A DNA stretch of 64,000 bases, from contig OX442314.1 in the NCBI GenBank assembly GCA_949358305.1, positions 28,334,001 to 28,398,000 of the forward strand. Reading direction: 5' to 3'. Both the position numbers and the translations under genes were made by a program. This document shows positions 16,007 to 60,100 of the stretch, piece by piece (position 1 is the stretch's first letter; each line of letters begins with the position of its first letter). Source of the stretch: Strigamia acuminata (taxonomy: Eukaryota). The notes under the pieces were generated by a model that saw only the letters and a list, made by a program, of their open reading frames with translations, searched no databases and was not told the DNA's origin.

Positions 16007-16090
16007 TTTCGATTTATTTCGAATATTTCGGACGGATTTAACGAGATTTAGTTTACGTGGAACGAAGCGATTACGATTGCCAATTAGTTT

Positions 16091-16120: not shown

Positions 16121-16209
16121 TGTTGTTATGTTGCTAAGAAAACGAATGTGATATGCACGGAACGACTTGGAGAGAACTGATTTTATTCAAATAAACATGT
16201 GGGTTATAT

Positions 16210-18089: not shown

Positions 18090-18771
18090 ACTAATGGCTT
18101 GGGGATGGTTTCTCGTATGGGCATCGGTCTAAATCATCAAATTACGAGTCTCATGGGCCAATATACTTACAAAAAAGTATTGGAGGATTTTTATGCTTCC
18201 ATTTGCAGATGATAAACTGTCTTTGACATGGATATTTCAGCAGGATAATGATCCTAAGCATAAAGTCATGTCGGTTACTCAGTGGTTACAAACCCATCAC
18301 ATTGAGGTTTTGACTTGGCCTGCACATTCGCCAGATCTAAATCCTACAGAAACAGTGTGGAACGATGTTGAGAAAGGAGTAAAAAATGCAAAACCTGCAA
18401 ATTTGTCGGAATTATTTGACATTATCGAGGTGAAATGGGAAAACATTCCTCTCGAACGCTGTATTCGTTTAGTTCACACAATGAATAGATTATTCAAATA
18501 ATAATTATTCAAATAAACAATGAATTTCTCAAGAAGCAGGGTTTTTTTGTGCTTTTTTGAATGTGCTGCTAAACTTATGTGCAGCAACAAATTGTACACA
18601 AACACTAAAAGTTACAATTGGTAATTACAATGTATGATTTGTTTAAATGTTTTTGCATTTTCTAAAAGCAGAATTTAATGCCAAATTCATATTTTGTATC
18701 AGAAAGACTTTTTGACAAAACACAAAATAGTGCAAATGACAGTAGTGGTGCTAAACTTTTGACCACCACTG
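18090..18771 (+). mobile_element. Tc1-like transposon 3' remnant
   Basis: WIFQQDNDPKH..WPAHSPDLNPTETVW (DD34E region). Ends in ACCACCACTG followed by TA. Left boundary approximate. Confidence 0.88.
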
Positions 18772-19761
18772 TAAATTCACTGCTTAGCTAAAAACTTACT
18801 TCGCGACATAATAAGTGATGATTAACGGTAGTCCGCATTCCGCCATCGTCACAAGTGTCTTTCTTCCGTTTTTGATCTATTAACTGCTTGATATAGCTCC
18901 ATTCACAACACTCATTACGAGTTTGCTTGATTTTCTGCGCTGTTCATATTTAAAATTAAAATTATTTTTGAACTTTGAAATTCTGTTTATCAAATTTTAT
19001 GATGTAATTTTACCTGCGGAATCGTTTCTTGGTGTTAGTCTGGGATAGTCTTGAGTTTTGACCTCCCATTCCTTTGTTTTCAGCCGTGTTTAGAGACCAA
19101 TCGTTCGAGCTTTCAAACCAAGGCAACCATTGCTTTCTCGATGACGTCACTTCTGCAAAGAGTTATAAATATTTATTGATTATAAGAATTTCAATGCTTA
19201 AGAGGATTAATTAATTAATTCTAAATATATTTATGACAATCTTTACTCTCTAATGTGTATAATTCAGAATTTTATCATTTAACTTGAGAAATAACGAAAT
19301 ATAAGCTCTGTGATTGGTTGATTTTTTTTATTTCACTAACAAGTAAGTGACTGGAACAACATTCATTTTTAAGGTTTCTGGAAGTGCTGAATTGTAATTT
19401 AAATATATTCCTAGTGTTTTAGAAGTGATTATGACCTGAAATCTCTATTTTTTTAATGACTATTCTCGCAGCCGGATTTATAACGGCTGTCTCTAGTTAC
19501 CTTAGGCTGTCTGGATGCTTGCGCGGATACGGCCTACTCGTAAATTCTTGTGGTAGCAAGATTGCTAGAGAAGTATCAAATATACTTACTCAACTGTATC
19601 GTCTATCGCTCCAATTTGGTTTAAAGTTGGCCTGATGGTTGAAGTTTTGCTGTGATCTGTTGTATAGTTTGGTAAGTTCTCTCCAAAGGTGGGAAATCCC
19701 CAAGGTTTATACAGTGGGGCCACGTGACTGCTCGGGGTGCACACCTGCCCTTCCAGGAATT

Positions 19762-20010
19762 CAATTTTAATTTGATAAAATTTAATTTAACATACAATTT
19801 TAATTTGATAAAATTTTATGCAATATTCAATTAGATAGAATTTTATGCAATATTCAATTAGATAAAATTTTATGCAATATTCAATTAGATAAAATTTTAT
19901 GCAATATTCAATTAGATAAAATTTTATGCAATATTCAATTAGATAAAATTTTATGCAATATTCAATTAGATAAAATTTTATGCAATATTCAATTAGATAA
20001 AATTTTATGC
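19762..20010. repeat. 27-bp AT-rich minisatellite, about 8 units
   Basis: Tandem TATTCAATTAGATAAAATTTTATGCAA. Confidence 0.95.
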
Positions 20011-20384
20011 CAGTGGCTACGGCGACAATGCCTTTGAAAACTGGCACCAGGGGAATCGGAGTTACATTAGGCGCCTAGTTGAAGGGTCTGACTAGGATCG
20101 CAGTAGGGCAGGGGCAAAAGGTATGGAGGGAACTGACCCAGTTTACAGTAAAGCGGGGGCAGAGGGGAAATAGGGCACATTAGATGCCAAAAATTAGCTT
20201 AGCTTGGCTAATAAATTCTTTTATTACATATTCTGAACCTATACACAATACACATGCACCAAATAACAGATTTGAATTCTACTGAATATTACACAGCCCA
20301 ATAACCTGTCAAATTAATGGGAAAAAAATTTCATAACTCTTAAATGAAGCCTAGCCCATGCTAAAAAGCTGTTTGTTTGTCGCC

Positions 20385-37768: not shown

Positions 37769-38226
37769 TCCTACTCAATTAGGACACTTTATTGGGTCAT
37801 ACTTGTAAGTAGAAGAGAGGAAACACAAAAGAAAGGAAATAATTTATTTTGGAAATACATTCCACATGATAGTTTTAAGTTACAAAGCTGAGTAGACTAA
37901 CATTTCAAACCTTTTTTTCTCAAAACACGTCACGTGCAAAAATACATAGTCAAGCAGATTTTTCTAAACGCACCTACTTAAATTTTAAATGATTAAACAG
38001 GCATTAAAATTCTAACTATTTCTCTACATATTAAAGTTAAAATTATTCTAGTTTTTCTACAGGCTATACAGAGAAGTGTTACACACTAAAAAGAAGGATG
38101 TTGTACGATAAAACTGTAGCTATTTTTACCTTCAGAATGTTTCAGTCACTGAAACTAGAAAAACACTGTGCAAATACAGTAATTGATAATTAATAATTGG
38201 AAAGCTGCATTTCAGGTAACTTCAGA

Positions 38227-41200
38227 TTAGATAGCCTGAATTAATATCTTTTTTTTTAACTTTTTTAACTCGAGAATATAATAAGAGGTGTTCTTTTATA
38301 TTTATTCTGAGTACCATAAACTGATTTACTATCTTTTGCAATAATTCTGGAATTGCAAGAATTGAAAGGCCAAGCATTAGTGCAAAAGAATTTCCAATAT
38401 CGCAACACAATGCAACTGCAGTGTAGGATAATATTTGAGTAATCTGTTCAATTATATTATTCAGTGGACTTAAACCAAGAACCTTGAATGGAAATGCTTC
38501 AGGATGTTGAAAGTAAACATAAGTGTTAAATATTTGTTCTTCACAAGGAGGGTGACATCCACAGTCTTTCGTTATGTCAACTTTTAAGGAATTCTTCATG
38601 AATAGTTGTAATGAAGAAATTGCTTCTTCAGCATTTGCACAGATATTATTTGTTACATTATCCAAAAATGGTAACCTACAAATATAAAGACATATTGCAA
38701 CTCATTGCAGTAACTCATTGTGTCGCCCCTTTCGACTTTCGCCGTGGACTTCCTCCTAGTCCTCTTGTACCGGCCCATACAGAATCTTTAGTAATGTTGC
38801 TCACATGCTCACATGCTCACATTCAATTCTGTGAAGAATTACGACTCACTTGCATCGAACAAAATTATAAATCAATTTTTTGTAACAATCATCCTGGCAT
38901 AGTTTGTATTTGACGTGGTCAAGGCAAGATTGTGCTCGTAAGTTTAATCGAACGGTCTAAAATAGAGCAAATGTTTCAAGAATTTATACGTAATAAACTG
39001 ATGTACGAGTATTACTTTAATCATCTTAAATGTAATAACAACTAAGGTGTTATCTACAACACTTCTTCTACTTCTGAGAATTGATGGTATTTCAGCATCA
39101 TTTTGTCGAAAGTATATCTACAAAAGAAATTACGATTACCAAACAATTTCTACATTTATACAAATAACTAAACGAAACCACAGTACAAGTAGTTCACCTG
39201 CACAATTTACACCTCTGAACCCATCCATATAAGCAGTTTACCATTAACCATAACTTTCCCTGATACATACATTACGTTACGTTTTCCACATATTCTGAGT
39301 GGTGAAAAATATTATAAAGAACAGTCACCATAGCCAATCTGTACTACAGGACTATTACACAATTGATCAAGACATACAAGATGGCATAAAAGGTGGGCCA
39401 CTGATGTGTTTAGTCTTGTATGTGGGTCTAAAGACCATTTATTTGATCGATGTCGAATGTTTCTGATGTCAATTTAGCGTTTTATTTCACACGATGTAAA
39501 CTTTTACTGCTTTAGAATCAAATGCGGTATTTGTATTTGCTTTACGATTGTTCCGTACGAAATTCCGTACGATTTATGTATCTACTAATGAGATTTGTTC
39601 TATTTTTCAATGTTAATGTTATTATCTGGCACTAGAGTGCCACACTTGTTTTCCTTGCAAAATCCAAGATGGCGCAACACACGGGCGTGTGTTGCCCTGA
39701 CTGTTTATCCACATCAAAGTAATGTATTTTCGTTTAATTAAATTGTTTTTAGTAGTTTTAACAATTGTACTTACTTTAAAGCACCTTCTGTGCTCTTTTG
39801 TGCGCGAATAAGCGGCCTTAAGCCGCGCGCTTGTTACGAAACGTATTGCGACGTATCGCAAACGTTCGCGTCGCAGACCGACGCCATTACGGCAATTTGC
39901 CGCACGCTTCTCGGCGATATCTCGCCGATATCTGCGCCCCTCTGTTCTACATTTGGTAGCAGAGGGTGGTTGCTGCCTAATTCCACGTTTATTTCGTTAA
40001 TTTTCGACGTATTTGTCGCGAAATTCGCGACTTGTGCGCCGAAATTCGTTTATTTTCAGGTACCGACGATCCTCGCCTCGTCAGTTTCGTTTTACGAACG
40101 TCTACGACGTACCGCCGACGTTCCACACAGCCAGGGCTGTTTATCCTACGATCATTTGACTAATTTTGTCCAAATTCTCGCGGGTTTCGCGGTTTTTGAG
40201 GCAAATTTATTTATTTTTGCAGATTTTTCGACAAAACTGGATTTTCGACACTGCTTAGCACGAAGCGGCAGTTCCAACGAGAACCGAACACTAGATTGTT
40301 CGCCGCTTAGTTCCCCGGTGAACGGCGGTTATCACCGATCTGTGCAAGTGGACGAAGAGCCTCGATTTATTCGAGAAGATTTCGGATTTCACATCCGAAA
40401 TAGCGCTTTCTCCAGCTTTTCGAGAAAGCTGCGCCGTGCCTTCATTTGCACGAGGATCGCATCCGCGATTGATTCGTCTATTTCTCCTTCTTTCGACTTT
40501 ACCTTTGTTAGAATTAAGGGTATTTTGGTGTGGGACCTTATTAGATTCGACACAGCTCTTCGGGCATTCCGTCCACCGCTGTGTTTGTATTTTGTGACAA
40601 GGCTGAGCCCTGCGCCACCTAGCATTCCCGTGACCCCAGGAGGTCGTAAAGGACGCTAGGGGGACACTTGTCACAAGCTATCAGCTGATTGTAGCATCGG
40701 CTCCCCCTTTGAAGGTTTCCGCCTCGAAAGTGTGTGTGAAGTGCTTCAGTTCAGTGCTCCGAATCGAAGTCAGCATTTGTGCAGTGCTCCAGTATTTAAC
40801 GTACCATTCCTTGAGTCAGTGTGTTCGTCGCGTTGTGTCGAGTTTTCCACTCCACAATGAAGAAAGCGTCGGAATTATCGGGCGGAACGGTTCCCGTACT
40901 CACCGTTGGGAACTATGAATCCTGGCAGCGCTCGATGCGCATGCTTCTAAAATCCGAAGGTTTATGGAGACACGTGACCGAGGAAAAGGAGGCCGAGCAC
41001 CTTGCAACTTTAAATGAAAAGGAAAAGGACCGTTATGCTGTGAAAAAGGACAAAGCACTTGGTCACATATATATTCACGTCAGTGAAGCGAAACGATCGG
41101 CCCTCGACGCTTGCAATACACCTAAGCAAGCATGGGACAAGTTGGCCACCATTTATGCACCGAGTTCCAGGGCCAGACGAGCGGCCATGAGATGGGAATT

Positions 41201-44200
41201 TTTGAGCCTCCAACTCAAACCTGGTGAAGACATGCCTGATTTCATCGGTCGTGTGGACCATTTTGTTCAACAATTAAAAGACGTTGGTGAAAATGTCTCA
41301 GAAGAACATCATTCTTTCCAATATCTCAAGGGTTTACCACCGGAATATTCCCAGGCCACGTTTGCAGTATACCACTGGCCCGACGCAAACTTTACTCCAA
41401 CCAAAGTGGCGGAACAGTTATTGTCCGAGCAGATGCGTTTAAAGGCAATGGGATTGACTAACCAACCGTCTGCACATACCTCGAAAGGACAGTTTCGCCA
41501 GCGTAATCAATCTCGCGGACCTCGAGATTTGTCTAAAATCAAGTGTTTTAACTGTGATCAAATGGGTCACTACGCTAATCGTTGCCCTCAACCACCACGT
41601 GGAGACGGGAATCAGTCCACAGCTTCTGTTCAGCGTTCGTCGCGAAGTAAAAGCCGCAGACGTAATAAAAATGCCGCTGCCAAAGTTGAAGACAATCGCC
41701 CACGCGGAAGTTCACGTCCGAAGCGAGAGGGGACATTCTTTTGCAGTGCTCCGCAGATTATTGAGCGTCCTACGGTCCATTTCATGCAATCCAATGAATG
41801 GATCGTGGATTGCGGGGCAACAGATCACGTTTCCCACGTGCGTGACTGGTTTACAGACTTTTCAAATATCCAGCCATTTGATATTGCGTTAGGCCAAGGC
41901 AAATCACAGGTGACAGGACGAGGGACAGTTCAATTGCTCACGTCGGTCGATGGCGCGGATTGCACCATCAATTTGAAGAACGTTCTCTTTGCGCCGAATT
42001 TCGAAGCCAATTTGATTTCGGTGTCAAAGATTGACAAGACCAATCACCATGTGCATTTCTTTAATGGAGAGGTGAATGTTTATCAGACAGACTTCCGTTC
42101 ACCTATTATTCGTGCGAGAGAACGCGGTGGATTATATTATTTGGACGGTTTATGCTCAACGCATCTTGTGACGCCAACTGTTTCAACAATTACTCAACCG
42201 CCAGTCCAGATATCACTCCAACCTGTGCAAACACTTGTCACAACAGAAGTAGATTTCGACAACGTGCCAAAGCCAAAGAAGGGCAAATCAAAACTACGGG
42301 AAATTTCAGACTTTCGCATAACTTTGCCTGCTATCGAACCAGCGAAGCAAATGCCAGTTCAGCAAACTCCTAACCCTCCTTTACCTGCACAAGTCACCAT
42401 TCCACCGCCTACCCAGAAAAATCCCAATATCCAATCCTATGTTGACATCCTAAAGTCCTTGCCACATGCCTTTCTACCCAGCGAAACCTCTAATCCAAAA
42501 CAGAAGGTTGTTGCTAATCCTACTACAGTGAAGGATGCAACTGGTTTGTGGCACAGTCGTCTTGGCCACCTTCATACGAACGCCATGAAGTTGTTAGCGG
42601 CCAATGAACAAGTCCATGGAATGGAGCCAGCAGAAGTCCGTCAGGAGTTAGCCTGCAATGACTGTCGTATTGCTAAATCTACGAGGGCTTCTCACAAGCC
42701 GGACCCACATCCCATGACTTCAAAGCCATTAGATCTTTTACACATGGATTTGTGGGGGCCAGCCCCAATCACTTCCTTGGGCGGCTCGGATTATGTATTC
42801 ACCATAATTGACGATGCAACACGCTACACCTGGATTTTTCCTCTGACACATAAATCTCAGACATTTGCTGCATTTAAAGACTTCGTCGCCAGAGTTGAGC
42901 GGGTTCAGAACACTACCGTAAAAGCAATCAGATCCGATAGGGGCGGCGAATTCATGTCAAATGAATTCTTGCATTATCTTCAAGAAAAGGGTATCCAGGG
43001 ACAGCGAACTAACCCCGCATCGCCACAAATGAACGGGACAGCAGAAAGGATAAACCGGACAATGGCCGACAGTGTCCGATCGATTATTTCAGAAACAAAG
43101 CTCCCTGATGCACTCTGGGCCGAACTCGCTGTTACCTTCGGGTATATAAAGAATAGGAGCCCACATTCCAGACTGAAACATCAAGTCCCATACATTCTTT
43201 GGCGACAAAGAGATTTATCATTACGCCACCTACGTAAAATAGGATCCAAATGTTGGGTGCATTACACTGCACCGGGACGCAAGAAACTGGAAGCGCGTGC
43301 TTGGGAAGGATATCTTGTTGGCTACGCCACCAGCACTCGCGGCTACAGAGTCTGGAATCCAGTCGAAGACAGAGTATATGAATCTATTCACGTTAAAATC
43401 GACGAACATCAATCTTATCGGAAGTCTTTGCGAGGTTCAACGCAAAGACCTGATGAAACATTCCTTGAAAACGGCAATGGACAACAATCCGTATCATTTG
43501 ACGATAATGTCAGATATCATCGTTGGCCGAAAGGGTCTGATTCTGATCGCTCTGATAACAGCGATAACGATGATGACAATGGCAATGACAACCAGACTTC
43601 AACATCTGCGTCAATGCATACACCTCTTGTCTACTTGCCGCCTCCGACGACACCTGAGCAGCGATTATTGGATGCATGTGCGTTGGAGTTACCAAGCTCA
43701 GCTAGTTTGAGACAATCTCAATCGTATCCTATTCTATGGATTCCACCAGATGAGGACGATACAGATGCCGATATTAATAAAATAGATGAACTTTCAATTT
43801 ATCCTGGAACATCTGAATTCACTGGCACGTCGCCCGAACAATCGCCATGTCAAACTCCACCACCTTCACCTGCTCGGTCGCATCGCCAAACTCCACCAAC
43901 TTCGCCTGACCGATCACATCATCAATCTGAAGCGTCAGCTGGACAGTTGGCTCATCAATCTCCGCCCGGTTCGCCAGCACGATATATCACGTATCGTCGT
44001 AAAGGGCGTGGAGCAGACTCAGGAAGTCATACTGTACCAGTATTCGATGACACCCCAATGTCTCCTGCTCCGATTCCTCCCATAACAGGAACTGAAGTTC
44101 CGGCAGCGACTGAGCGTCATACAGCACATATGTGGCGACTTGTCGGCGGGAATTCCGAATGTAGTAATTGGAGACGCGAAGAGCATCTTAGAAAAGATCA

Positions 44201-47200
44201 AGTACCTGGGAAGATTAGGACCGACGTTTACTATTTTCCAATGCCTGGAATCAGACTCAGATCACCGAAAGACATTGAAGAATATTGCATGCTCAACAAC
44301 ATAGACTATGAGCCTGAACTTTTCACGTTCCGCAATATTGAATACACGTTGCCAATTATCCCAGGACCCCAACATGCAGCCCATCTTTGTCGAACGGAAC
44401 CGGCCTCTTATGCCGAAATACCCAAATTCACGGACGCTCCGAAATGGCGCGAAGCCATCGATGAGGAGCTGGGAACGTTCGTCGAGAGAGAGGTCTATGT
44501 AGAAGTCCCTAGACCACCTAACACTACCATCTTGGGCTGCAAGTGGATCTTCAAATTGAAGACGGATGTAACCGGCACCATCACACGATACAGGGCCCGT
44601 CTAGTCGCGCAGGGATTTCGTCAAACGCTGGGCGTGGATTATGATGAAGTTTTCAGCCCAGTGGTGAATTTCGTTTTAATTCGCCTATTCTTCTGTCTCC
44701 TGGTTGTGTTGCGTGGTTGGAAGGACGCCCATCTTGACATTAAATGTGCGTACCTGTATGGTGAGTTAAAACACAAGGTTTACATGAGGATCCCTGCAGG
44801 TGCCACATGCTCCGACCCCAACAACGTTTGGCTACTCGTAAAATCGCTCTACGGACTGCACCAATCAGGAAGGCAGTGGTTTGAAAAGCTGGATGAAGCC
44901 CTTCGAGATCTTGGATTTAAGAAGATGCCGGCATGTAACTGTGTTTACACATTTGGGAATTCTGCCGTAATGTTGATCTATGTGGATGATATTGTTCTCT
45001 TTTATGCTTCAGACAGCATTTTCAGCCAGTTACTTGCCCTCATTAGTTCAAAGTTCCAGATAGTTAATCTTGGTCCAATCACGAGACTACTGGGCGTTGA
45101 GTTCATCCGTGACGCAGGGCGCACGTTCATCACACAACGTGCGTACATCGCAAAACTTGTGAAGAAATTTGGTATTGCAACCAACAATCGCATCAAGGTT
45201 CCCGTGACTCCCGGCACCACACTCGTGAGAGGGTCAACCGAAAATCTGGCAGACTTTCCCTACAGGTCACTCATTGGATCATTATTATTCCTGGCGTCAA
45301 GAACGCGCCCCGACATTCTTTACTCAGTGATTGCTCTGGCACAATTCAACACATGCTACAATCAAACGCATATCCGTGCATTGCTACAGGTCATGCAATA
45401 CGTCGCCAACACTGCGGACTTGTGCATTGAGTTGTCCGGTTGCACATCATCACAACTGTGGGCATTCACTGACGCGTCGTGGGCAAGCGATCCAGAAACA
45501 TCCTTGAGCTTCGGTGGCTACATCACCTATGTTGGAAACGTACCGATCGGCTGGTCTTGCCGAAAACAGTCAACCGTGGCATGCTCAACAATGGAGGCGG
45601 AGTTTATCGCCCTTGTTGAGTGTGTCAAGGAGCTGTATTGGTTGAATCACGTGTACACCCAGTTTCCAGCTTTGAATCGCCTATCTCGACCCGTCGTTTA
45701 TTCCGACGCCCTGGCCAGCATACAGTTCACCTCAAACGATGTGGAGAACTCGAAGACTCGACATATCCGCGTTCGTTATCACTGGCTCAGGGAATGGTTC
45801 ACGGCGGGACGCTTTGATCTCCGAAAAGTGGAAAGCGAGTTCAATGTCGCGGACATTTTCACGAAATGGCTCAGTTCGGAGCGTCTACGATCGCTGATTG
45901 CCAACATCTTCAGATCATAGACCTGCACTACCTTCAATAATGACATTCCTAAGTTATTTTTCCCAAAGTTGAGGATAATCGAGTTCAGTGGGAATCCTCG
46001 GGCTTCCTTAGTGAAGAGTTCTTCAATATCAGTACCCGGCTTGATTATTCGCCTATATTATTTGTTTTTCTGAATATAACACACTGTAATTCCAGCATCT
46101 GTTAGCTATCTCCCCTGTAATTATTCACCATCGAAGAGGGGATTTGTGGGTCTAAAGACCATTTATTTGATCGATGTCGAATGTTTCTGATGTCAATTTA
46201 GCGTTTTATTTCACACGATGTAAACTTTTACTGCTTTAGAATCAAATGCGGTATTTGTATTTGCTTTACGATTGTTCCGTACGAAATTCCGTACGATTTA
46301 TGTATCTACTAATGAGATTTGTTCTATTTTTCAATGTTAATGTTATTATCTGGCACTAGAGTGCCACACTTGTTTTCCTTGCAAAATCCAAGATGGCGCA
46401 ACACACGGGCGTGTGTTGCCCTGACTGTTTATCCACATCAAAGTAATGTATTTTCGTTTAATTAAATTGTTTTTAGTAGTTTTAACAATTGTACTTACTT
46501 TAAAGCACCTTCTGTGCTCTTTTGTGCGCGAATAAGCGGCCTTAAGCCGCGCGCTTGTTACGAAACGTATTGCGACGTATCGCAAACGTTCGCGTCGCAG
46601 ACCGACGCCATTACGGCAATTTGCCGCACGCTTCTCGGCGATATCTCGCCGATATCTGCGCCCCTCTGTTCTACATTGTAGTCAGTTTTATTGTTTATAG
46701 AGGGATTAAGATCTGGAATTTCAGATATTAATACGGTAGCTAATGGTTCTCTTGATTTTTTGAATTGAATATTCCATCTTTTCATTGTTATCTTTACCGT
46801 ACGGACTACTTAAAATTGCAATAACATTTTCCCGTTCTATTTTAACTGAATTGAAGCTAAATAATGGTAGAATGTAGAATCATATCTTAACACCATATGT
46901 TATGTTTAAAAAATTGTATGAAAATTGGTCATGACATGAACTTAATTTTGACCAATATTCTACTTATTTGGCAAGAAGTTGTACATTACTTCATACTCAT
47001 GCTGATTACATATTTGATATCGCAATGGTAATGGTTGTAGACTAAAAACTATTAGTGAGGCAGTTCCGGCATATTTTAGTGGTGCTGCAACAATATAATG
47101 CTCGTATTAATATTTTATGTACAATTTATATAAAATGTCTATTTATCTACCGATGTCAGATTGAAAGCATGTTCCAGTTGGCATAGCTATTTTACTCCAA

Positions 47201-50200
47201 GTTACATTAGTTTTTACTCCAGCAGCCTGCAAAAACAGTTATGATCAACTTTCAGTTAAATAACATACGTTTGTTTATTAAATGATGGGTCCAAACAGGC
47301 GTGACATCGCAATTTTGCCACAGGGATTTTGAAGCAAGTATCCGCGATGTATATGCAGATGTGAACCCATCTATTGCAGAATACTTACCAAATAGGCATT
47401 GTCCATTGCTAATTTATTTATCAAAGGCGTTTGGAATCGCCACACATCTTCTATTGACGGCTTTTTAAGAATATTAGTCATGTTCATTAATTTGATAAAA
47501 TGAATCTCGCATTCATTCTTGCCAATTTCTTTAGCATATGTGCGCCTGTACTTAGTCATTAATGGTCCATCCATACATGCAATTAAATTGGGTAAATACA
47601 ATGTGTGATTTTCTTGAATGATTACCACATATCTTGTCGGCTCACTTATATATAATTTGATTCTTTCTTTACTCACATAAACTGCCAATATTGCAGAAGT
47701 AAATATAAGCATTAAATTCAATGTAGATTGCAGTAAAAGTATTTTTTGTGGCTGCTGCATCACACTTTGAGAAACATCTTTCTTTTTGTCGATGACCAAA
47801 TGCATTTGCTTAGTAGTTTTCTTTTTTATGCTCGCTTTAAGTTGAGCAGGTCTGATGTATTTAGACATAATGGGAAGAAATATTTGAGCAATTTCAATCA
47901 AAGACAGAAGAGAAAATCCCAAAGAGAATCCCAAATTGCCCCCAAAATCGATTAATAAGTTTGGAATGGTGTAAATGTAGGTTTCTGTCATTCTGACAAA
48001 CAATTCTTCCAATACTTTAAGATTGAGACTTATTAGATCTTTGCCACTTGGTTCATCTTGAAAATCTAACTTAAAACATAATAATTTTGAGAATGATGCA
48101 TAAAAATAGAAGATGTTATAGTTTAACTTGTATCAGAATAGGCTATAAACAAATAAACATTCCGTTCACAAGGTCTCAAGCAACCACATTCAAATGATGG
48201 CAGTGTAGTCGTTTCATGGAAAAATGCTTCCTTATACATTTCAGCCACAATTGATTTGTTTGACTCTAAACTGCAATCCATCAAATTTTTGTTGGACATA
48301 AAAGGCAACCTGGTAAGTCAAAAATCTATGAGTTTATCAATATTTAGATGTTGCATGCAATTAGACCTGCATCGTTGAGGAATTTTTTTCCTCACACAAT
48401 CTTCGTAGCATTGGGTTTCCTTTTTCTTATCCGGTTCACAATAGGGATGTCTCGAAGCTAAAAATTGATACTACCAAAAAACCAATGCAGAATTACTATT
48501 TTTGGTGATCCGTCACAATTAACAAGATTGAAAATCTGATATCTGATATACCATATTCAAACTTATATACTTTTGTGAAGCACTACAAATATCACAATAT
48601 GTTTAACCTAATTGAGCTTACACTTCGAATAAAAAATTGAATATCTGATTCAATTCCTAACGCCACCGAAAAAGTGTATTGGTAAGACATGACGCTAACT
48701 ATCGTACTCATCTAATATTCAATTGTGCAAAAGTTACAAACTCCAATAAAATAGTAAAAGATGAGATGAGATTCTTACCGAAATGTGTGGCATTTGGCAG
48801 TTGGTTCTATACGTTTTAAGGAGCATGTGTGATTTCATATTTAGTGCTAATTTTCGATCTATAAATTTAGTCAATAATATTAAAAGTTCAAAATTATTTT
48901 TTGTTTGTTTTTAATTCTAACCAGAATTAAAGACCAACGATCGTCCAGTTACATCATTTCGATAGCTTAGTGAAATTTTTGTGTTATCCTTTCTAGAAAT
49001 TCCTTCTTTAATTGTTGTTTCATGCAATACAGTTTTGCCCTGAAAAGTTATACGATTATAGATGTAATTCAGCAGATTACTGTATACGTATTTTGATGAT
49101 CCTGATTTCATTTTCAAATAAAATTGTTATCACCACTAAAGAATTATCTGTAATCAATTACTCTGGCTTGGCACATGCCAAAACTAGCCAAGTGTGTCTG
49201 GAGGATCAAAACTCCCAAGGCACACTTCATCCTAATTTAGCTAGGGTAATTTGCAGAAGCAACCGTTTTGGTGCAACAATTTCTTTGTTGCACCAAAACT
49301 AGCTTATGCGCACATTTATTGCGTGGGACCGGAGTGTGCTCTGCCCCAAATTTTGGAGCTTGAGCCTCGGCTTGAGCCCACTATCAACATCAACATCAAA
49401 TTGGAAACACATCGTCACTGCCTTGGAAAAAATTCAGGTATTGATCGTGTTTGTTTGATTAGTTGAGTCTCTGCTGCTTTAAATACATTTAGTGAAATTA
49501 GCCACTTGCCTCTGTGTGTGCTAAATACCATTTAGCACACGGACTTTGCGATCTTTGGGTAAGGGGCCGTCCATAAATTACGTAACGCCTGGAGGGGGGG
49601 AGGGGGTTTCAAATTTTGTTACGGGTTTGTTACGACGGGGAGGGGGGGGGGGTTCTTAATAACTTTTTTTTTAACATTTTTAAAATTTTTTTTTAAATTT
49701 TTGAAAATTTTTAAAAAATTTTGAAATTTTTAAAAAATTTTGAAATTTTTGAAAATTTTTTGCAAAATTTTTGAAAATTTTGAAAACTTTTGTATTATAA
49801 GCTTGTATCAAATTTTTTTTTTTGGGGGGGGGGGGTGGTGAGTTTTGTTACGTAATATAATATTCTAGGGGGGGTTTGTGGATTTGTTACGACCTTGTTA
49901 CAAGGGGGGAAGGGGGTCTAAAAATCGAAAAATCAGCGTTACGTAATTTATGGACGGCCCCTAACGCCCAAAGCCTTGCGCTCGTCGCCGACCATCGTGA
50001 GCCGCCATTGAGCTTGCTCTGGCGCTCGCCAACGCCGCCCGAGCAACCTTACGTTCGTTGCTGCCATCTCGAATCACCGTTGAGCGTGCTCCGGAGTTCG
50101 CCTTCGCTGCTCGAGCGATCTGTTGTGCAGAATTCGTTCACTCCATATTTGCGCACAACAATCTGTTGTGCGCCTTTCTTTGTTTCCTTTTCATTTTATT

Positions 50201-52120
50201 GTTTCGTAGTTATTCCTAATTTACCGGTATTAATACTATAATTATTTGTATTTAACCGAATAAGGGGCCGTCCATAAATTACGTAACGCTCCAAGGGGTG
50301 GGAGGGGGTTTTAGATTTTGTTACGGGTCATTAGTAAGGGAAAGGGGGGGGGGTTCTGAATGATGTTACGGTTACGGTCCATGAAAAAAATTTTTTTTCA
50401 TGTTTTAAAATTGAAAATATACGCAGTTTTGAGACTCAATTTTGAAAATTTTTTGGGGGGTGATTTTAGTTTTATTACGTAATTAGGGGGGTGGGGGTTT
50501 GGGAATTTGTTACAGCCTTGTTACAGAGGGGGGGGAGGGGGTCTAAAATGCCCAAAATTGGCGTTACGTAATTTATAGACGGCCCCTAAAATATAATCTG
50601 TTCTGTTTTATATTTAACCAATTGTTTTATATGAGTATGCACACCAGGGGGTCCAGTTGTGGACAAGAGCAGGTGTGTGAATAATTTTCATTCCCCTTAC
50701 CATAAAAAAATTATGACATTATGTGCATGAATTTACTGCCATTTACTGTCATGTCCATGAATAAAATTGAACAATTCCGGTTCTACTAACACTTGTTCTG
50801 CATTGTTTTTTAATAATAACAATTTTTACAAGAATCTGAATACCGGTACTTATGATGACAACTGTATAAAATAACCGGACTCAAAAATCATTGGTCGAGC
50901 CAGTTTACTACTAACTCCAGACTGTAAACTACTACTAAGAGAAGTAGTTTTGATTTTTATTTATCTTTGAGATGGTTATGACTACTACAGTTAATGTAAT
51001 TTTGATTTTTCTTATTATAAAATGTTATTTCCATCATTTAAATGAAGTTTTACGCATATAAAAATGTCAAACTCATGTTTGTTATGTTTATTGGTTACTT
51101 CGTCTGGAATTTTGAATTTTTGGCTGTTGCCTAGGCAATCGATTACAATGTCTGTACATTGTAATGCAATTCTGGTGTTTGGGTCTACTTTTCCGGATCA
51201 CTACACCAGTAAACTGGCTCGACCAATGGGACTGTTGTTGATTTTTGAGTCCGGTTACAGGATGCTTCAGCATCGTACTAACCAATTTCCTGACATCCCA
51301 TACTTGCCCAGGAGATGGAATAATTCAGATAGAGCTCATGATTTAGTGTCTAAATTCATTTCTTGTTTTACACAAGAAAGGTCATTTGATGCTACTCTCT
51401 AACAGAGAAGCAAATCCTTATTGTTTCTTTCCCTGACCAACCGTTGCTAACGGAAAAATATGGAAGCTGCATGACGACATCAGTGATTGTATTGGTAGCA
51501 ATACTTGTACAAGCCTAACTTTTATCATTAAAAGCTAACAATTACTAGAACAATTTTATGTGGTGACAATACATAATATCAACATAATATCAACATAATA
51601 TCCCATCCGGTATTAATAAAATAATAAGATTAAATACCTGTCTTATCTTGACGTGCTGTAAATTGCTTGAAATGTTGCTTTTTATCCAAAAATCTGTATA
51701 ATTTTCAATTTTCACTGCTGCAGAAATCATTCCTCTCAGTGGCAAAACACAAACACGTAATGTTTCATACATAGAACCTTCTTTCATTATTTTCCAGTAT
51801 TCGGACAAAGATCCGGTATCGAGACCAAAGTACCTGAATTCTGGGTATGTCATTTCACCTATAGGAACATATTCAATTTCAACTTTGATATGTCCATCAA
51901 AATAGAATTGAATTCTTTCTATTGTTTGGTAACAACAAATGACGCCACAAACGATCAAAACAACGAACCAAACTGCCCGAACTAAACTACTCTTTTCTTT
52001 GTTTAAAACATTATCAATAAACTTCAAACTATCACAGCCGGACACTGAAGTTTGAATTTCTTGTTCCACAAAACGACGAACAAGACTACGACGAAAACGC
52101 AAACTTTCTAATTCTTTCAT
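38227..52120 (-). CDS. Double-domain DEG/ENaC gene, copy C; coding exons open, 7.26-kb copia in intron 9, solo LTR and MITEs in intron 1
   Basis: All 13 exons recognisable by homology to copy D (ORFs 51590-52120, 48917-49117, 48123-48308, 47371-48012, 38222-38665) with splice sites retained. N-terminus is diverged (MKELESLRFRRS). Last exon is shortened to AI-stop. Confidence 0.78.
39954..39971 (+). promoter_or_regulatory. Primer-binding site complementary to the 3' end of initiator tRNA-Met
   Basis: TGGTAGCAGAGGGTGGTT just after the 5' LTR. Animal tRNA-iMet ends in CUCUGCUACCA. Confidence 0.88.
40857..45920 (+). CDS. Copia Gag-Pol polyprotein (about 1687 aa): Gag, CCHC knuckle, protease, integrase, MBD, RT, RNase H
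   Basis: CFNCDQMGHYANRC; WIVDCGATDH; WHSRLGH; HMDLW..SDRGGEF..AER; WRREEHLRK..RTDVYYF..GIRLRS (MBD-like); LDIKCAYL..YVDD; TDASW..EAE..ADIFTK. Uninterrupted. Confidence 0.96.
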   Translation: MKKASELSGGTVPVLTVGNYESWQRSMRMLLKSEGLWRHVTEEKEAEHLATLNEKEKDRYAVKKDKALGHIYIHVSEAKRSALDACNTPKQAWDKLATIYAPSSRARRAAMRWEFLSLQLKPGEDMPDFIGRVDHFVQQLKDVGENVSEEHHSFQYLKGLPPEYSQATFAVYHWPDANFTPTKVAEQLLSEQMRLKAMGLTNQPSAHTSKGQFRQRNQSRGPRDLSKIKCFNCDQMGHYANRCPQPPRGDGNQSTASVQRSSRSKSRRRNKNAAAKVEDNRPRGSSRPKREGTFFCSAPQIIERPTVHFMQSNEWIVDCGATDHVSHVRDWFTDFSNIQPFDIALGQGKSQVTGRGTVQLLTSVDGADCTINLKNVLFAPNFEANLISVSKIDKTNHHVHFFNGEVNVYQTDFRSPIIRARERGGLYYLDGLCSTHLVTPTVSTITQPPVQISLQPVQTLVTTEVDFDNVPKPKKGKSKLREISDFRITLPAIEPAKQMPVQQTPNPPLPAQVTIPPPTQKNPNIQSYVDILKSLPHAFLPSETSNPKQKVVANPTTVKDATGLWHSRLGHLHTNAMKLLAANEQVHGMEPAEVRQELACNDCRIAKSTRASHKPDPHPMTSKPLDLLHMDLWGPAPITSLGGSDYVFTIIDDATRYTWIFPLTHKSQTFAAFKDFVARVERVQNTTVKAIRSDRGGEFMSNEFLHYLQEKGIQGQRTNPASPQMNGTAERINRTMADSVRSIISETKLPDALWAELAVTFGYIKNRSPHSRLKHQVPYILWRQRDLSLRHLRKIGSKCWVHYTAPGRKKLEARAWEGYLVGYATSTRGYRVWNPVEDRVYESIHVKIDEHQSYRKSLRGSTQRPDETFLENGNGQQSVSFDDNVRYHRWPKGSDSDRSDNSDNDDDNGNDNQTSTSASMHTPLVYLPPPTTPEQRLLDACALELPSSASLRQSQSYPILWIPPDEDDTDADINKIDELSIYPGTSEFTGTSPEQSPCQTPPPSPARSHRQTPPTSPDRSHHQSEASAGQLAHQSPPGSPARYITYRRKGRGADSGSHTVPVFDDTPMSPAPIPPITGTEVPAATERHTAHMWRLVGGNSECSNWRREEHLRKDQVPGKIRTDVYYFPMPGIRLRSPKDIEEYCMLNNIDYEPELFTFRNIEYTLPIIPGPQHAAHLCRTEPASYAEIPKFTDAPKWREAIDEELGTFVEREVYVEVPRPPNTTILGCKWIFKLKTDVTGTITRYRARLVAQGFRQTLGVDYDEVFSPVVNFVLIRLFFCLLVVLRGWKDAHLDIKCAYLYGELKHKVYMRIPAGATCSDPNNVWLLVKSLYGLHQSGRQWFEKLDEALRDLGFKKMPACNCVYTFGNSAVMLIYVDDIVLFYASDSIFSQLLALISSKFQIVNLGPITRLLGVEFIRDAGRTFITQRAYIAKLVKKFGIATNNRIKVPVTPGTTLVRGSTENLADFPYRSLIGSLLFLASRTRPDILYSVIALAQFNTCYNQTHIRALLQVMQYVANTADLCIELSGCTSSQLWAFTDASWASDPETSLSFGGYITYVGNVPIGWSCRKQSTVACSTMEAEFIALVECVKELYWLNHVYTQFPALNRLSRPVVYSDALASIQFTSNDVENSKTRHIRVRYHWLREWFTAGRFDLRKVESEFNVADIFTKWLSSERLRSLIANIFRS
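49563..49961. mobile_element. PIF/Harbinger-like MITE
   Basis: TIR GGGGCCGTCCATAAATTACGTAACGC, TSD TAA. Confidence 0.9.
50264..50586. mobile_element. PIF/Harbinger-like MITE, second copy
   Basis: Same TIR with one mismatch, TSD TAA. Confidence 0.9.
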
Positions 52121-52444
52121 TTTGTTGTGACTATTAACTAAACGTGTCCTCTTGTTAAGTAGAGTTTACTGACTAAAAGTGTAAGGAGCAGCAAGAGAGG
52201 AAAAAAAACTTCAAAATGGCAAATGCAGACAAAGATATCAGTTGGCTTTTCAAAAAATTGCTAAATTGATCGAGAAAACGTCAAAGCTTGTTTCAAAATT
52301 GAAAATGTAGGAAAAACTGGCAAAACTTAAAAAAAAATTGTATTTACCGTTTTCAGTGTGTACAGTAGTTTGACGCGAGAAGTCTAATCATACAGACAGG
52401 TGCTAACAACTTTTGCTGCAAAAAGTATGGATTAACTGTCTGTA

Positions 52445-53146: not shown

Positions 53147-53880
53147 TGTGGTGACCCTGAAGTGTTTTTATTTATTTATTAAATAAATGTATCACCACTT
53201 AAGAAATTGTATATTTTTATTTCATTTTGGTTTGGCAAATGCCAAACCAAGTCATGTGATTAGAGGGAGAAAACTCCCCAAGCACATTTCACCCCAATTT
53301 GGCTGGGGTGAACCGTTAATTAACCGTCTTGGTGCAACAAATCCTTTGTTGCACCATATTGAGGTAATTACGCAGATTTACTGCACAAATCCGAAGTGTG
53401 CTAGGATTGCATTTTGCAAAATTGGCTCACTCTTGAATCGAACACCAAACCAAAAACAGACCTTGTCATTGCTTTGATTCGGGACTTCTGCTTTCTTTGT
53501 GCCACTTGCATAAAGACAGCACTTGGATTTGCCACTGTTGTGTGCATTCGTCTTGAACCATCGCCGTCGCAGGAGCCACCGTGATTTCATCCAGAGTTTC
53601 TGCCATCGCCGTCGCAGGAGCCACCGTGATTTCATCCAGAGTTTCTGCCATCGCCATCGTACGAACGAGAGTGAGGAGAAGACATCGTCGCCATTTTCGT
53701 GCAGCAACCAGCCGTTGTTGCGTATCACGTATCGTTTTTTCATTGTTCTCTTTTTCCTACCTATTTATCCCTAGTTCAGTGTTTCATTTAATCTCCCTTG
53801 CGTGTGCTTCACACTGTTTGTCACACGCGCAGCCCACGTTCGTTGCCGCTGTCACGAACCACCGTTGAGCGTGCCCGCAC
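53147..53880 (+). mobile_element. Truncated LTR of the same family, with an internal 45-bp tandem duplication
   Basis: Starts TGTGGTGACCCTGA and shares ttggtttggca..gccaa and tggtgcaa..ttgcacca motifs. 45-bp duplication near 53560-53655. Right boundary approximate. Confidence 0.7.
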
Positions 53881-54911
53881 ACAATTAGAGGATTAACAGT
53901 CCATGTGTCCGAAAAAATAAAGCTACTGCATACATACACCAACAACTCGAAATTATTAGTTTAGTAGATACTGAAGATGGGGTTAACTTGGTTTATGATA
54001 CTTTATGAAATAATAATCATATTTTCAGAGCAGAGTGTTATGTTATAGGGCAGTGCTTCTCAAAATGTGGTCTGCAAGGCAACAGGCTAGTGGTTCGAAA
54101 TAAGCTTGGTAAAAGAAGCCAGGTGATTAATTACAAAGTTAAGAAAACCCCATTTAATCTCGTACACTCTAAATTGCAAAAAAATTGGGTATGTTTGAAA
54201 TAATATTACCTAGTCCAACAAAATTTCACAACAACTGAATGCGATAGAACATTCGGACAAAAAATATAAAATATCTTTTTTGGGCCTAAAAAGTAGAGGT
54301 TTGTACATAGAATTGCTTTTTTGGGGCTAAAAAGTACAGCCTTGTACATAAAATTTATCTTTTGGGTCTAAAAAGAACAGGTTTGTAAGCTTACATAAAA
54401 ATTCACAGTTGGCAGTGTAGAAATGCTGCGAAAAAATCAACGTTACATTAATTTTAACGAGTTCCAATATATAATTTAGTTCGTGATCAGTTTTTAATGA
54501 AAAATTTAAATTAAAAATTTATTTTTTTGTGAATAAATAATAATAATAATAATAATAATGAGCAAAAGTGCAAACTTTGAAAATATTAATTTAGTTATTG
54601 ATTAAATTTTACTCACAAGCAGCGGCATGAATCAGAAAAGCGCAGAAACGTTCATCACTTAAAAGCACAAAAACACCCCAAATTCAAGAGCGGTGCGGCT
54701 GCCCCGTGTGAGTTATTTATTCTTTCTCTTCTCTGTGGAGACTTCCATAGCACGAAGGATGCCGATCGCGACGGCAAGAAATCAAACATGGCGCATATTT
54801 TTATTTACTGCACTTTCGTGGCATTTGTTTCGAGGGTATGCCAAAAACACATGCTGATACATATGCTGAGCATGCGCAATGACATTCCCACGTTTCCCTT
54901 TTTGATGCATT

Positions 54912-56217
54912 TGTTGCGATCCGGGAATTTATTCACGAAATACTTACCTTGTTCGTGAATATCTCGCAATTGAGATGCCGTTTATAGGCCTTATACTCGG
55001 CTGCCTGTAAAATGGTGTCTAGGGGTATTTTTATGAAAGGAAAACAGCAGTTGAACTGAGTAAAAATGACAAATAGATTTTATTTGGTCTAAAATTACAG
55101 GATAATTTTGAGAAATATAATAACTGAATTTATTATAGACTTAGCGGTTAAAATCAAGAAGAATAAATGAGGAAGAGTTGGAAATGATACGAGTGAGCGG
55201 CAAGACTCACTCGAAACAAAGGAAAGGCGCTAACAACGACGGTTAATCGTTGAGCGCGAATATTTGGCACGCAACAAACGGCCGTTTGTTGCGCTGGAAA
55301 AATGGCGAGTCAGACTCGCCTGAGAAATTATTCTCGTTCGTACGATGGCTTTTATCTGTGAACTCCGGAGGAAGCTCGCGGTGGTTCACAGATTCGGCGA
55401 TGGTTCACGGCGAGAGTTTTGCAGGTGTCGACGACGGCGTGCCCGGAACAAGTCACGGAGCACACGATAATCAACAACGAGCGGTACAAATCTCCTTTAC
55501 TCGTTCGATGGCGATCAACTGTAAACTCCGGAGGAAGCTCGCGGTGGTTTACAGTCTTCTCACGATGGTGCACGAGCAACGGTTTGCTCGATCGGCGATG
55601 GCGAATCTATAGGAGACTCAGCGATGGCCGACGGTGAGCGGTTTTTCTCGGGCGTTACCCGAGATTCGTAGTCAGAGGTCAAATGTGGCTGGTTCCACCC
55701 ATAAAACGGTGGAAACAGCAGAATCTCAACTCACCAAAACGTGTAACACGGTCAGCACTAGAATCTTTTTGTTTGAAGTTCTCAGCGATGATCATTTGTG
55801 TTGTTGTTGTTGGTGTGTGTGTGTCAAGAGTGAGCCAAACCGCCAAAATTTGGGGTTTTATGCACTCTCGAAATCTGCGCACCAAATATGCGCAGAGTGT
55901 TGATTTTGGTGCAATACAGGATGTATTACATCACCATCATCACTCTGATGTAATGCTTTGGCCCAAAGAGGGTAAAGTGTGCCTGGGGGATTTCCGCTCC
56001 CAAGTGTAGCAATTCTGCACCTGCAGGCCTGGCACACTTTGGATTTTCCCCAAATAGGGGTGAAAATATGAGAGGGCAGTTCTCCTCTCCTCATTATGTA
56101 ATTTGGTTTGGCGTGCGCCAAACCAAAATAAAATGAAAATATACAATTTCTTCCGTGGTGACTATTTATTTAATAAAAGCACACAAAATTACTAAATAAC
56201 GACTCAGGGTCACCACA
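54912..56217 (-). mobile_element. Solo LTR (1306 bp), same family as 32317-33258
   Basis: On minus, TGTGGTGACCCTGA..CCCGGATCGCAACA, with 4-bp TSD CATT. Confidence 0.85.
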
Positions 56218-57161: not shown

Positions 57162-60100
57162 TTACGTAACTTCAGATTTGATGCACTGAATTAATATTTT
57201 TGAATTAGGTTTTTTTAACTCGAGAATATGATGGGAGATGTGCTTTTATATTTATTCCGAGTACCATAAACTGATTTAGTATCTTTTGCAATAATTCTGG
57301 AATTGCAAGAATTGAAAGGCCGAGCATTAATGCAAAAGAATTTCCAATATCGCAACACAATGCAACTGCAGTGTAGGATAATATTTGTGTAATCTGTTCA
57401 ATTATGTTATTCATTGGAATTAAACCAACAACCTTGAATGGAAATGCTTCAGGATGTTGAAAATAAACATAAGTGTTAAATATTTGTTCTTCACAAGGAG
57501 GATGACATCCACAGTCTTTCGTTATGTCAACTTTTAAGGAATTCTTCATGAATAGTTGTAATGAAAAAATTGCTTCTTCAGCATTTGCACAGGTATTATT
57601 TGTTACATTATCCAAAAATGGTAGCCTAAAATTACAAAGACTAATTACAACACAGTGCAGTAACTCGTAGTGTCACCTCCTTCGACATTCCCCATGGACC
57701 TCCTCCGAGTCCTCTTGTACCTGTTCATACAGAATCTTTAGTAATGTTTGTAAATTTAGATTCTAAATTGACCAAAAACTTAAAAAAATATATAATTTCA
57801 GATAGACACACGACAGTCTTATTTTGCATTCTGATGTCACCCTGATTGATGGTCTAATCCAGTGCAGTCCGCACTCCCTGAACTCTGGTAAAGAATTTTT
57901 ATTTCTAACTCTAGAACTCTTAGATTTTGAGGGCCCAAGTAGCAATATTCAAATCTGTGAAGAATTACGACTCACTTGCATCGAACAAAATTATAAATCA
58001 TTTTTTTATAACAATCTTCCTGGCACTGTTTGTATTTGTCATGGTCAAGACAAGGTTGTGCTCGTAAATTTAATCGAACGGTCTAAAAAAAAGCAAATGT
58101 TTCAGAGTTTATATGTAATAAACTGATGTATTACTTTAATCATTTGAAATGTACTAATGACAAAGGTGTTATCTACAACACTTCTTCTACTTCTGAGAAT
58201 TGATGGTATTTTAGCATCATTTAGTCGAAAGTATATCTACAAAAGAAATTATGATTAACTACAATTTCAACATTTTCACATGTAACTAAACACAACCACA
58301 GTACAAGCAGTTCGTCTGGGCAATTTACACCTCTGAACCCATCCATCTAAGCAGTTTACCATTAACCATGACTTTCCTTAAACGTACATTACGTTACGTT
58401 TTCCACATACTCTCAGTAGTCAAAAATATTATAAAGAACAGTCACCATAACCAATCTGTATTGAAAGACTAGTACACAATTGATCAACAGCAGAAAAGTT
58501 GGCACGCTAATGTGTTTAGTCTTGTAGTCCGTTTTATTGTTTAGAGAGATTAAGACCTGGAATTTCAGATATTAGTAGATACTATTCTACCAGATTTTTT
58601 GAATTTAATATTCAAACTTTTTATTGTCAATTTTACCATATGGAATACTTAAAATTTAAAAAATTTAAAATTTACGATTTTCTAGTTCTCTTTTAACTGA
58701 ATTGTAGCTGAATATTGGTAGAATGTAGAATGATATCTTAACACCATGATTCATTCCTTTATTTTATCTTTAAAAAATTGTATGAAAATTGATCATGGCA
58801 TAAAATAAGTTTTGACCAATATTTCATGTATTAGGCAAGGAGTTGTAGATTACTTCATACTCATGCTGATTACATATTTGATCTTTCACTGGTTGTAGAC
58901 TAAAAAATATTATTGAGGCAGCTCCGGCATATTTCAGTGGTGCTGCAACAAGATAATGCTCGTATTAATATTTCATGTACAATTTATATAAAACGACAAG
59001 TTATGTACCGATGTCAGATTGAAAGCAAGTTCCAGTTGGCATAGCTATTTTACTCCATGTTACATTACTTCTTACTCCAGTAGCCTGCAAAAACATTTAT
59101 GATCAACTATAATCAACCTACATTACGTTTGATATATAGCAGATCCTCAATTTACGAACATCCAAAATTTCAGAAATACCAACTACAAATTAGTTTACGT
59201 TGTTGGCACTAGGATAAGCGCAAAACTCACGCTCTTATTGTTGTTTAATATAAACCATTTATTTATTTATAATAGACAAAAATCATAAAAACAATATGAT
59301 TCAAGAATGTATTCTTTAATTACTGGGGTGAACAATTTTTTCACTTTGTACATCCTTGACCTAAGAACAAGTTCTTGCAACAGTACTTGTTCGAAAGTTG
59401 AGGACCTGCTGTGTATATGCAGAATGCTGGGTGCATTCGTACTCAATCCTTGATATTGGCGCCATCTTACAAACACTGGTAACAATACTGTTTAATTGAC
59501 ATACAATAACAACTAAATACATTTTTGAGTGATATTTGTCATTACTGCTCTAAATTTTATTTGGTTAATAAACCTTTCGTGATTGGACGATACGTTATGT
59601 GTATCATAATGGGTCCACACCTGCGTAACATCGCGATTTTGAAGCACGTTTCCGCTATGTTATACAGATGTGAACCCATCTTTAGCGAAATTCTTACGAA
59701 AGTAGCAGCTTTCATTGCTACTTTATCCATCACAGGCGTTTGGAATCGCCACACATCTTCTATTGACGGTTTTTTGTTGTCGATAGTCATGTTCATTAAA
59801 TTGATAAAATGAATCTTGCATTCATTCTTGCCAATTTCATTAGCATATTTCCTCCTTTTCGTAGTCATGTAGGGTCCATCCATACATGCAATTAAATTAG
59901 GTAAATACAATGTGTAATTTTCTTGAATAATTACCACATATCTTGTTGGCTCACTCATATATAATGCGATTCTTTCTTTGCTCACATAAACTGCCAAATT
60001 TGCAGAAGTAACTATAAGAATTAAATTCAATGTAGATTGCAGTAGAAGTTTTTTTTGTGGCCGCTGCATCACACTTTGAGAAACGTCTTTCTTTTTGTCG

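Follow-up and report, generated by a model that had tools for sequence, protein, structure and literature searches.

A young copia retrotransposon of Strigamia acuminata with a predicted methyl-CpG-binding domain between integrase and reverse transcriptase

What might a methyl-CpG-binding domain (MBD) do in the polyprotein of a retrotransposon? The question is raised by a copia element in the 64,000 nucleotides of Strigamia acuminata contig OX442314.1 analysed here (the window). Such elements, named CopiaMBD, were described in Strigamia maritima and Stegodyphus by de Mendoza, Pflueger and Lister in 2019 (accessible portions of PMC6673714). The preliminary description of this DNA was right to treat the class as known, and the finding itself repeats the 2019 discovery; its value lies in the material that it provides for the question of targeting.

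The element is a 7,255-bp Ty1/copia LTR retrotransposon with one intact open reading frame (ORF) of 1,687 amino acids (Table 1). It has the LTR pair with TG...CA ends, the primer-binding site (presumably for initiator Met tRNA), the polypurine tract and the 5-bp target duplication of an LTR element, and the gag-PR-IN-RT-RNase H order and RVT_2-type reverse transcriptase (RT) of Ty1/copia. No Pfam match to RNase H was obtained in the ORF. A chromovirus was rejected, since Pfam gave neither the Ty3/gypsy order (RT before integrase) nor a chromodomain. Along the ORF the SH3-like C-terminal domain of the integrase (aa 785-854) is followed by the spacer, the MBD and RVT_2 (aa 1212-1451). This domain order agrees with the earlier placement of an MBD inside a copia polyprotein between integrase and RT, and the peptide quoted at that time is present in the window, in frame within the stop-free ORF. 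The Ser/Pro-rich spacer noted ahead of the MBD contains 13% Ser and 13% Pro, and its 238 residues make it the longest among 27 relatives with a measurable spacer. A chance match, a frame artefact and a nested host gene were rejected, as the ORF is continuous and 34 of 150 representative matches contain this domain in the same position.

Table 1. Features of the element and its host locus (positions in the window)
Feature	Position	Strand	Evidence
Unit of a host ASC (DEG/ENaC-like) gene array with four units in tandem	38222-52165	-	Pfam ASC on exons
Left target-site duplication, TTGTA	39416-39420	.	same 5 bases at 46676-46680
5' LTR, 531 bp, TG...CA	39421-39951	+	identical to 3' LTR
Primer-binding site, 2 bases past 5' LTR	39954-39969	+	sequence
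Single intact gag-pol ORF, 1,687 aa, gag-PR-IN-MBD-RT-RNase H	40857-45920	+	ORF and Pfam
Gag (Retrotran_gag_2) and CCHC zinc knuckle	40935-41591	+	Pfam
Aspartic protease region (Pol_BBD)	41799-42041	+	Pfam, 66 bits
Integrase: HHCC region, rve core D-D(35)-E, SH3-like C-terminal domain	42498-43418	+	Pfam gag_pre-integrs, rve, SH3_retrovirus; motifs
Ser/Pro/Asp/Thr-rich spacer, 238 aa	43419-44132	+	composition
Predicted MBD with short N-terminal extension	44133-44336	+	Pfam, PDB sequence matches, model fold
Reverse transcriptase (RVT_2), YVDD motif at 44979	44490-45209	+	Pfam, 193 bits
RNase H region	45459-45917	+	position, motif, homology to copia relatives
Polypurine tract just 5' of 3' LTR	46133-46142	+	sequence
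3' LTR, 531 bp	46145-46675	+	identical to 5' LTR
Right target-site duplication, TTGTA	46676-46680	.	matches left copy

The Pfam profile PF01429 covers aa 1104-1160 (44166-44336). Its match is borderline: 21.2 bits (E 2e-4) against a cut-off of 21 on a 107-aa piece, 19.5 bits on a 203-aa piece and 17.7 bits (E 0.003), under the cut-off, on the whole 1,687-aa protein. In a PDB sequence search with the MBD, 13 of 14 matches were to MBD2, MBD4 or MBD1 (best E 0.005). An AlphaFold2 model from an alignment of 41 sequences, used instead of the single-sequence model (pLDDT 45), has a pLDDT of 87-97 across the MBD. Among the Foldseek matches listed for it (ranks down to 37) all are MBD or TAM domains, with a best E of 0.02, none at E≤0.001, and an rmsd of 1.7-2.6 Å over 57 columns for the closest. 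The top three ESM Atlas clusters are also MBDs (0.90, 0.89, 0.87). Because these lines agree, the borderline profile match is more than chance. When long proteins were searched by word index with the MBD region, no match came up, a blank that is uninformative since an exhaustive search found the relatives.

The four residues that contact methyl-CpG in MBDs (accessible portions of PMC12466977 and PMC3159451) are present as R1112 (44190), D1123 (44223), Y1125 (44229) and R1135 (44259), including both arginines singled out beforehand, and all four are kept in 31 of 40 aligned relatives. The MBD signature first read from the letters stands at these contact residues; it fails before W, where N replaces G, and after the RS motif, where P replaces K. 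The residue following RS is variable across the CopiaMBD family. Behind the first arginine, the loop exceeds that of MBD2 by one residue and lacks its conserved glycines; the beta1-beta2 loop, one residue longer, carries an Asp and a Pro, and the equivalent loop touches DNA in other MBDs. By profile, predicted fold and contact residues, the domain between integrase and RT is an MBD. The profile search and the structure prediction, both named as possible refutations in the preliminary description, upheld its identification.

The closest named relatives are two Strigamia maritima proteins. T1IY17 shares the domain order of the element and is identical in 36 of 66 MBD residues and in 62% of the C-terminal part of the integrase. 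T1IGT7, a rearranged gene model with an RT/RNase H piece ahead of the MBD, is 53-65% identical over RT/RNase H pieces. Two Strigamia rows in the accessible part of Table S3 of PMC6673714 have an N-terminal extension and a WRREEH motif in common with our element, and the closer one is identical in 33 of 69 MBD residues (counted by eye). Trees were made with FastTree (SH supports) from T1IGT7 and spider sequences, without the RT rows of PMC6673714 itself. In the RT tree, all 20 MBD-bearing sequences form one clade (SH 0.999) that contains none of the 35 MBD-less ones; in a larger tree of RT plus RNase H, a single clade (SH 0.944) unites 28 of 28 and takes in 1 of the 35 MBD-less sequences, and our element is sister to T1IGT7 (support 0.992). 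The RT tree, also proposed as a check, therefore groups the element with MBD-bearing copias. Since the clade also has members with a degenerate MBD (P0172, P0176, P0178, P0097) and one without it (P0182), some lineages can do without the domain. In relatives with a complete RT start, 14-69 residues lie between the end of the MBD and RT. Of 30 relatives looked up, 11 are named, and each of these comes from a centipede or a spider; UniProt already names some of the spider proteins MBD-containing. Judged by its RT clade, nearest relatives and common motif, the element belongs to the published CopiaMBD family, as had been proposed, and not a new class. A literature search, centipede genomes included, found no later paper on MBD-bearing copias.

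Among the differences listed between copies, 19 of 27 in the MBD are silent versus 26% expected (p 2e-6), a count that rests on 40 of 87 difference rows. Three of the eight non-silent differences lie within the beta1-beta2 loop, and the four contact residues show silent differences only, among the copies listed. These counts indicate that the MBD is under purifying selection among copies.

The insertion is very young: the 531-bp LTRs are identical, the 5-bp target duplication is present, and an empty allele with a single TTGTA was found in contigs from three public runs. TTGTA is also single-copy at the paralogous empty site (58522-58526). The depth of element contigs exceeds that of the flanks about 25-fold (X1), 20-fold (X2) and 5-fold (X3); depth is not copy number, and these values hint at many near-identical copies. 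In another run, X6, next to nothing of this stretch is present. The element lies antisense within an intron of an ASC unit, with exon ends flanking the site on both sides in the paralog alignment; a second ASC N-terminus was looked for inside the middle host exon without confirmation. A search with the ASC exons among longer proteins gave no match. The LTR has 7.3 CpG per 100 bp (observed/expected 1.79) versus 2.0 in the host units, and the 5' region has an observed/expected ratio of 1.39. At this one site, the 300 flanking bases hold 5 CpG, exactly the host-unit median, or 1.7 per 100 bp compared to 2.0 in host units and 3.6 as the window mean. Between host paralogs, CpG transitions (123/1,060) are 1.7-fold higher than other C transitions (586/8,579), a hint of germ-line methylation at the ASC locus.

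On balance it is probable that this is an intact, young CopiaMBD whose conserved MBD stays on the integrase, binds methylated CpG and biases insertions to methylated DNA. Protease cleavage at a presumed point between MBD and RT would likely leave the MBD on the integrase C-terminus, although a protease site in the 238-aa spacer, which would part the two, could exist. The domain itself likely binds methylated CpG, as three other Strigamia CopiaMBD domains did in DAP-seq on methylated DNA (PMC6673714, in part); those three keep the canonical loop glycines, and the subfamily of our element is not among them in the accessible portions. Tethering of the integration complex by the integrase-bound MBD would then bias insertions to methylated host DNA. 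Such targeting is likely; in the accessible text of PMC6673714 insertion sites are biased in two species, and there too targeting is a hypothesis without proof. CopiaMBD insertions in Strigamia are described in that text as intergenic and in CpG-dense regions. Our single site, intronic and of ordinary CpG content, is unlike this pattern and fits that of spiders.

An unlikely alternative is that the MBD binds methylated CpG with a role outside target choice. It might sit on the methylated, CpG-rich LTRs of the element itself in competition with silencing by host MBD-NuRD, or it might prevent self-integration by letting the integrase distinguish the chromosome, which is methylated, from the element's cDNA, which is not. 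The CpG richness of LTR and 5' region and an insertion site that is not CpG-dense agree with such a role, as do published domains that bind methylated LTR elements, CopiaMBD included; competition with host MBD proteins was raised by the authors of PMC6673714, who argued in the accessible text that it would require much protein. Targeting is favoured instead by the bias of insertions published for two species and by the fixed position beside the integrase, like that of chromoviral chromodomains. Quite unlikely is a fold kept with methyl selectivity lost, leaving a general DNA or chromatin tether like SETDB, BAZ2/TAM or MBD3-type domains. The divergent loop, RS-P instead of RS-K, the borderline Pfam score and the degenerate MBDs of the same clade would suit it, and the fold matches include BAZ2A/B TAM and SETDB2 with rmsd as low as MeCP2 and MBD4. 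But MBD subfamilies are not separable by fold scores, the residue after RS varies across the family, and the contact residues, including the Tyr absent from MBD3, are kept and differ only silently among the copies listed.

Very improbable, and already largely refuted, is independent capture of an MBD in a copia lineage unrelated to CopiaMBD, or a functionless domain that is carried along and decaying. Capture could draw on the modest RT/RNase H identity to the nearest named pieces, the rearranged T1IGT7 model and the absence of the published RT rows from the trees; against it stand the single RT clade holding all MBD-bearing copias, Strigamia and spider members alike, the motif common with the two published Strigamia rows, and T1IY17 with its matching order and integrase. 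Decay is contradicted by the dominance of silent differences listed in the MBD.

Compared with CopiaMBD as accessible in PMC6673714, the element is alike in its in-frame MBD between integrase and RT, kept contact residues, predominantly silent differences and RT clade. It differs as a separate element with about half of the MBD residues identical, 53-65% identity in RT/RNase H pieces, a longer spacer, an altered loop, identical LTRs, a segregating empty allele and an intronic site at ordinary CpG density. The host proteins MBD2/3, MeCP2 and MBD4 have the same fold, two arginines, Asp and Tyr, whereas here the domain, with its different loop, sits in a retrotransposon polyprotein without a repression or NuRD-recruiting domain. 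In chromoviruses (Ty3/gypsy), too, the C-terminal part of the integrase carries a domain that reads chromatin and would direct integration, an analogy drawn in PMC6673714 (in part), but superfamily, domain order and reader fold differ, and the MBD would read a DNA mark, not a histone mark. The parallel, by analogy, is one of similar working only and not of membership.

In the 2019 study, as far as its accessible portions go, methylation at CopiaMBD sites was measured only after insertion. A young family with empty alleles permits measurement of methylation before insertion. We suggest, tentatively and with more doubt than belief, a still-moving CopiaMBD subfamily with segregating insertions and a remodelled DNA-binding loop, landing in gene bodies that are methylated and ordinary in CpG density. 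If so, methylation before insertion, missing from that study, could be read at its empty alleles; together with the broader range in spiders and with lineages whose MBD is lost or degraded, these alleles would permit a first clean test of methylation-read targeting. MBD-bearing copias are also present in the spider genera Araneus, Trichonephila and Parasteatoda, which, with the losses and degenerate forms, widen a family found in two genera only in the accessible text of PMC6673714.

The preliminary description placed a methyl-CpG-binding domain (MBD) inside a copia polyprotein, and this has been borne out. The MBD peptide lies in frame in a single stop-free ORF of 1,687 aa (40857-45920), in which Pfam orders the domains as copia gag, zinc knuckle, protease region, integrase HHCC region, rve core, SH3-like domain, MBD and RVT_2. 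The Pfam MBD match is borderline, with 21.2 bits (cut-off 21) for a 107-aa piece and 17.7 bits for the whole protein. In a PDB sequence search, 13 of 14 matches were MBD2, MBD4 or MBD1 (best E 0.005). A structure model built on 41 sequences has an MBD-like strand pair and helix, with pLDDT of 87-97 across the domain. Its Foldseek matches listed to rank 37 are MBD or TAM domains only, with probability reaching 1.0 and no E-value below 0.02, and the top-placed clusters in an Atlas search are MBDs. Since these independent lines agree, the identity of the domain is settled despite the borderline score. R1112, D1123, Y1125 and R1135 line up with those residues of MBD2 that passages of two papers (PMC12466977; PMC3159451) identify as touching DNA; R1112 and R1135 are the claimed methyl-CpG-contacting arginines.

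As claimed earlier, the class is not new: CopiaMBD is reported from Strigamia maritima and two Stegodyphus species in PMC6673714. Two Strigamia rows of its Table S3 share the N-terminal extension and WRREEH motif of the present MBD, the closer with 33 of 69 identities, counted by eye. The top MBD match is S. maritima T1IY17, with 36 of 66 MBD residues identical and 62% identity over the C-terminal part of the integrase, and T1IGT7, a rearranged gene model from the same species, is 53-65% identical over RT/RNase H pieces. An exhaustive protein search with the MBD and RT start as query gave 150 proteins among the matches listed; phmmer matched the MBD in 32 of them and a profile made from the matches did so in 34, while Pfam alone called it in 33 of 41 aligned sequences. 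Organisms are named for 11 of 30 representatives (six Araneus, three Trichonephila, one Strigamia, one Parasteatoda). Judged by its nearest relatives, the host is most plausibly a myriapod, although transfer of LTR elements between species does occur; a search with the host ASC exons among longer proteins gave no match.

The sequences for the trees were collected by searching with the element itself, a choice that favours its relatives, and supports are FastTree SH values. Among 71 RTs with at least 200 aligned residues each, all 20 MBD-bearing RTs form one clade (0.999), together with five truncated sequences and none of the 35 MBD-less ones. In an RT+RNase H tree of 186 sequences, the 28 whose MBD is intact or degenerate again fall into one clade (0.944), which includes 112 truncated sequences and one of the 35 MBD-less, and the element is sister to T1IGT7 (0.992). 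The element is a new member of the described CopiaMBD family. Independent capture of the domain, or its decay, is a very improbable reading beside these clades; all four contact residues are retained in 31 of 40 relatives. Loss and degeneration do occur inside the clade, and the evidence for them is new here: the MBD-less copy, Araneus P0182, stands beside an MBD-bearing Araneus sister, P0153.

In a subclade near the element (P0172, P0176, P0178, P0097), the domain at the MBD position lacks the Asp, the Tyr and the second Arg and retains the hydrophobic pattern; it is possibly a reader with an altered ligand. Lysines replace both arginines in P0078 (Trichonephila), P0131 and P0133. The wider spider range of MBD-bearing copias is also new. 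Such proteins (P0047, P0076, P0078, P0130) come from Trichonephila clavipes and Parasteatoda tepidariorum. By synonymy, we take the Nephila entry in the list scanned in 2019 to be T. clavipes. Both that entry and P. tepidariorum are given as negative in the paper (PMC6673714). In the open literature, as distinct from subscription papers, queries with the family name and related terms found only that paper, and a centipede-genome query found nothing on CopiaMBD.

The two LTRs are identical over 531 bp, with a primer-binding site two bases past the first and a polypurine tract ahead of the second. TTGTA flanks the element on both sides; the matching place in a paralogous host unit has one TTGTA. 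In contigs of three public runs from two studies, 39415 is joined directly to 46676, in one contig with no further difference across 372 bases; therefore an empty allele exists, and the best-matching run may be the source sample. Because of the identical LTRs, the TTGTA duplication and the empty allele, this copy is very young and has not reached fixation. Many near-identical copies are hinted at by contig depths, which give no count; around 42437-42958, copies about 8% different occur in one public run.

The MBD is probably a targeting module at the integrase C-terminus, as first proposed, and would direct integration to methylated DNA. The protease would cleave at a hydrophobic stretch between MBD and RT, found at the same position in relatives, and the MBD would remain on the integrase C-terminus via a long flexible tether, where it could keep the integration complex on methylated DNA. 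According to PMC6673714, the DNA bound by other CopiaMBD MBDs in DAP-seq is methylated and dense in CpG, and young copies show a bias to methylated regions, which lie between genes in the centipede and within introns in the spider. The three domains tested there differ from the present one in belonging to other subfamilies. The paper's authors find targeting the more consistent reading and allow alternatives. A role in anti-silencing or cDNA discrimination seems unlikely here.

The divergent loop between the first two strands counts against targeting; this loop contacts DNA in other MBDs, according to passages of PMC3159451 and PMC8811898. It holds three of the eight non-silent MBD differences among the rows listed for related contigs (the 40 best supported of 87, each difference scored singly). 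By this rough measure, 19 of 27 listed MBD differences are silent, where 26% would be expected under transition weighting (p 2e-6), and none changes a contact residue. Loss of methyl selectivity by this MBD is unlikely. The insertion site, within an intron of an oppositely oriented ASC-family gene, also counts against targeting: the five CpG in its 300 flanking bases equal the local median, although one site is too few for a bias test. CpG transitions are 1.7-fold in excess among the host paralogs (counts not independent), which hints, from sequence, at a methylated gene body; such a body would match the spider-type pattern. With a young segregating copy, the targeting question becomes testable.

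Features of the window and of the CopiaMBD polyprotein (aa, Pfam)
Feature	Position	Strand	Remarks
5' LTR	39421-39951		531 bp, TG...CA
3' LTR	46145-46675		531 bp, TG...CA
SH3-like domain	aa 785-854
MBD	aa 1104-1160
RVT_2	aa 1212-1451
Pro/Gln/Thr-rich stretch	42140-42540		~130 aa, unusually long; between protease and integrase HHCC region
Divergent ASC (DEG/ENaC-like) gene	4900-63000	minus	four tandem units, ~80-90% alike
Second copia element	12336-16186	minus	two ORFs, no MBD
Gypsy-type element	1-4661	minus	gag, protease, RVT_1, RNase H- and integrase-like ORFs; several frames, broken
Tc1/mariner DDE_3 fragment	18133-18501
Inverted-repeat-bounded elements (3)	24863-26485; 28097-29935; 53192-56161
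27-bp tandem array	19745-20064

Each ASC unit has one recognised N-terminus and two exons resembling the ASC C-terminus, the first continuing in frame for about 170 aa that include a hydrophobic stretch. A second N-terminus was looked for within the units and not confirmed; a unit may encode a channel of two fused subunits, or it may consist of two genes lying end to end. The RT of the second copia element falls outside the MBD clade. The inverted-repeat-bounded elements are likely DNA transposon relics, and part of the gypsy-type integrase is apparently repeated at the window start.
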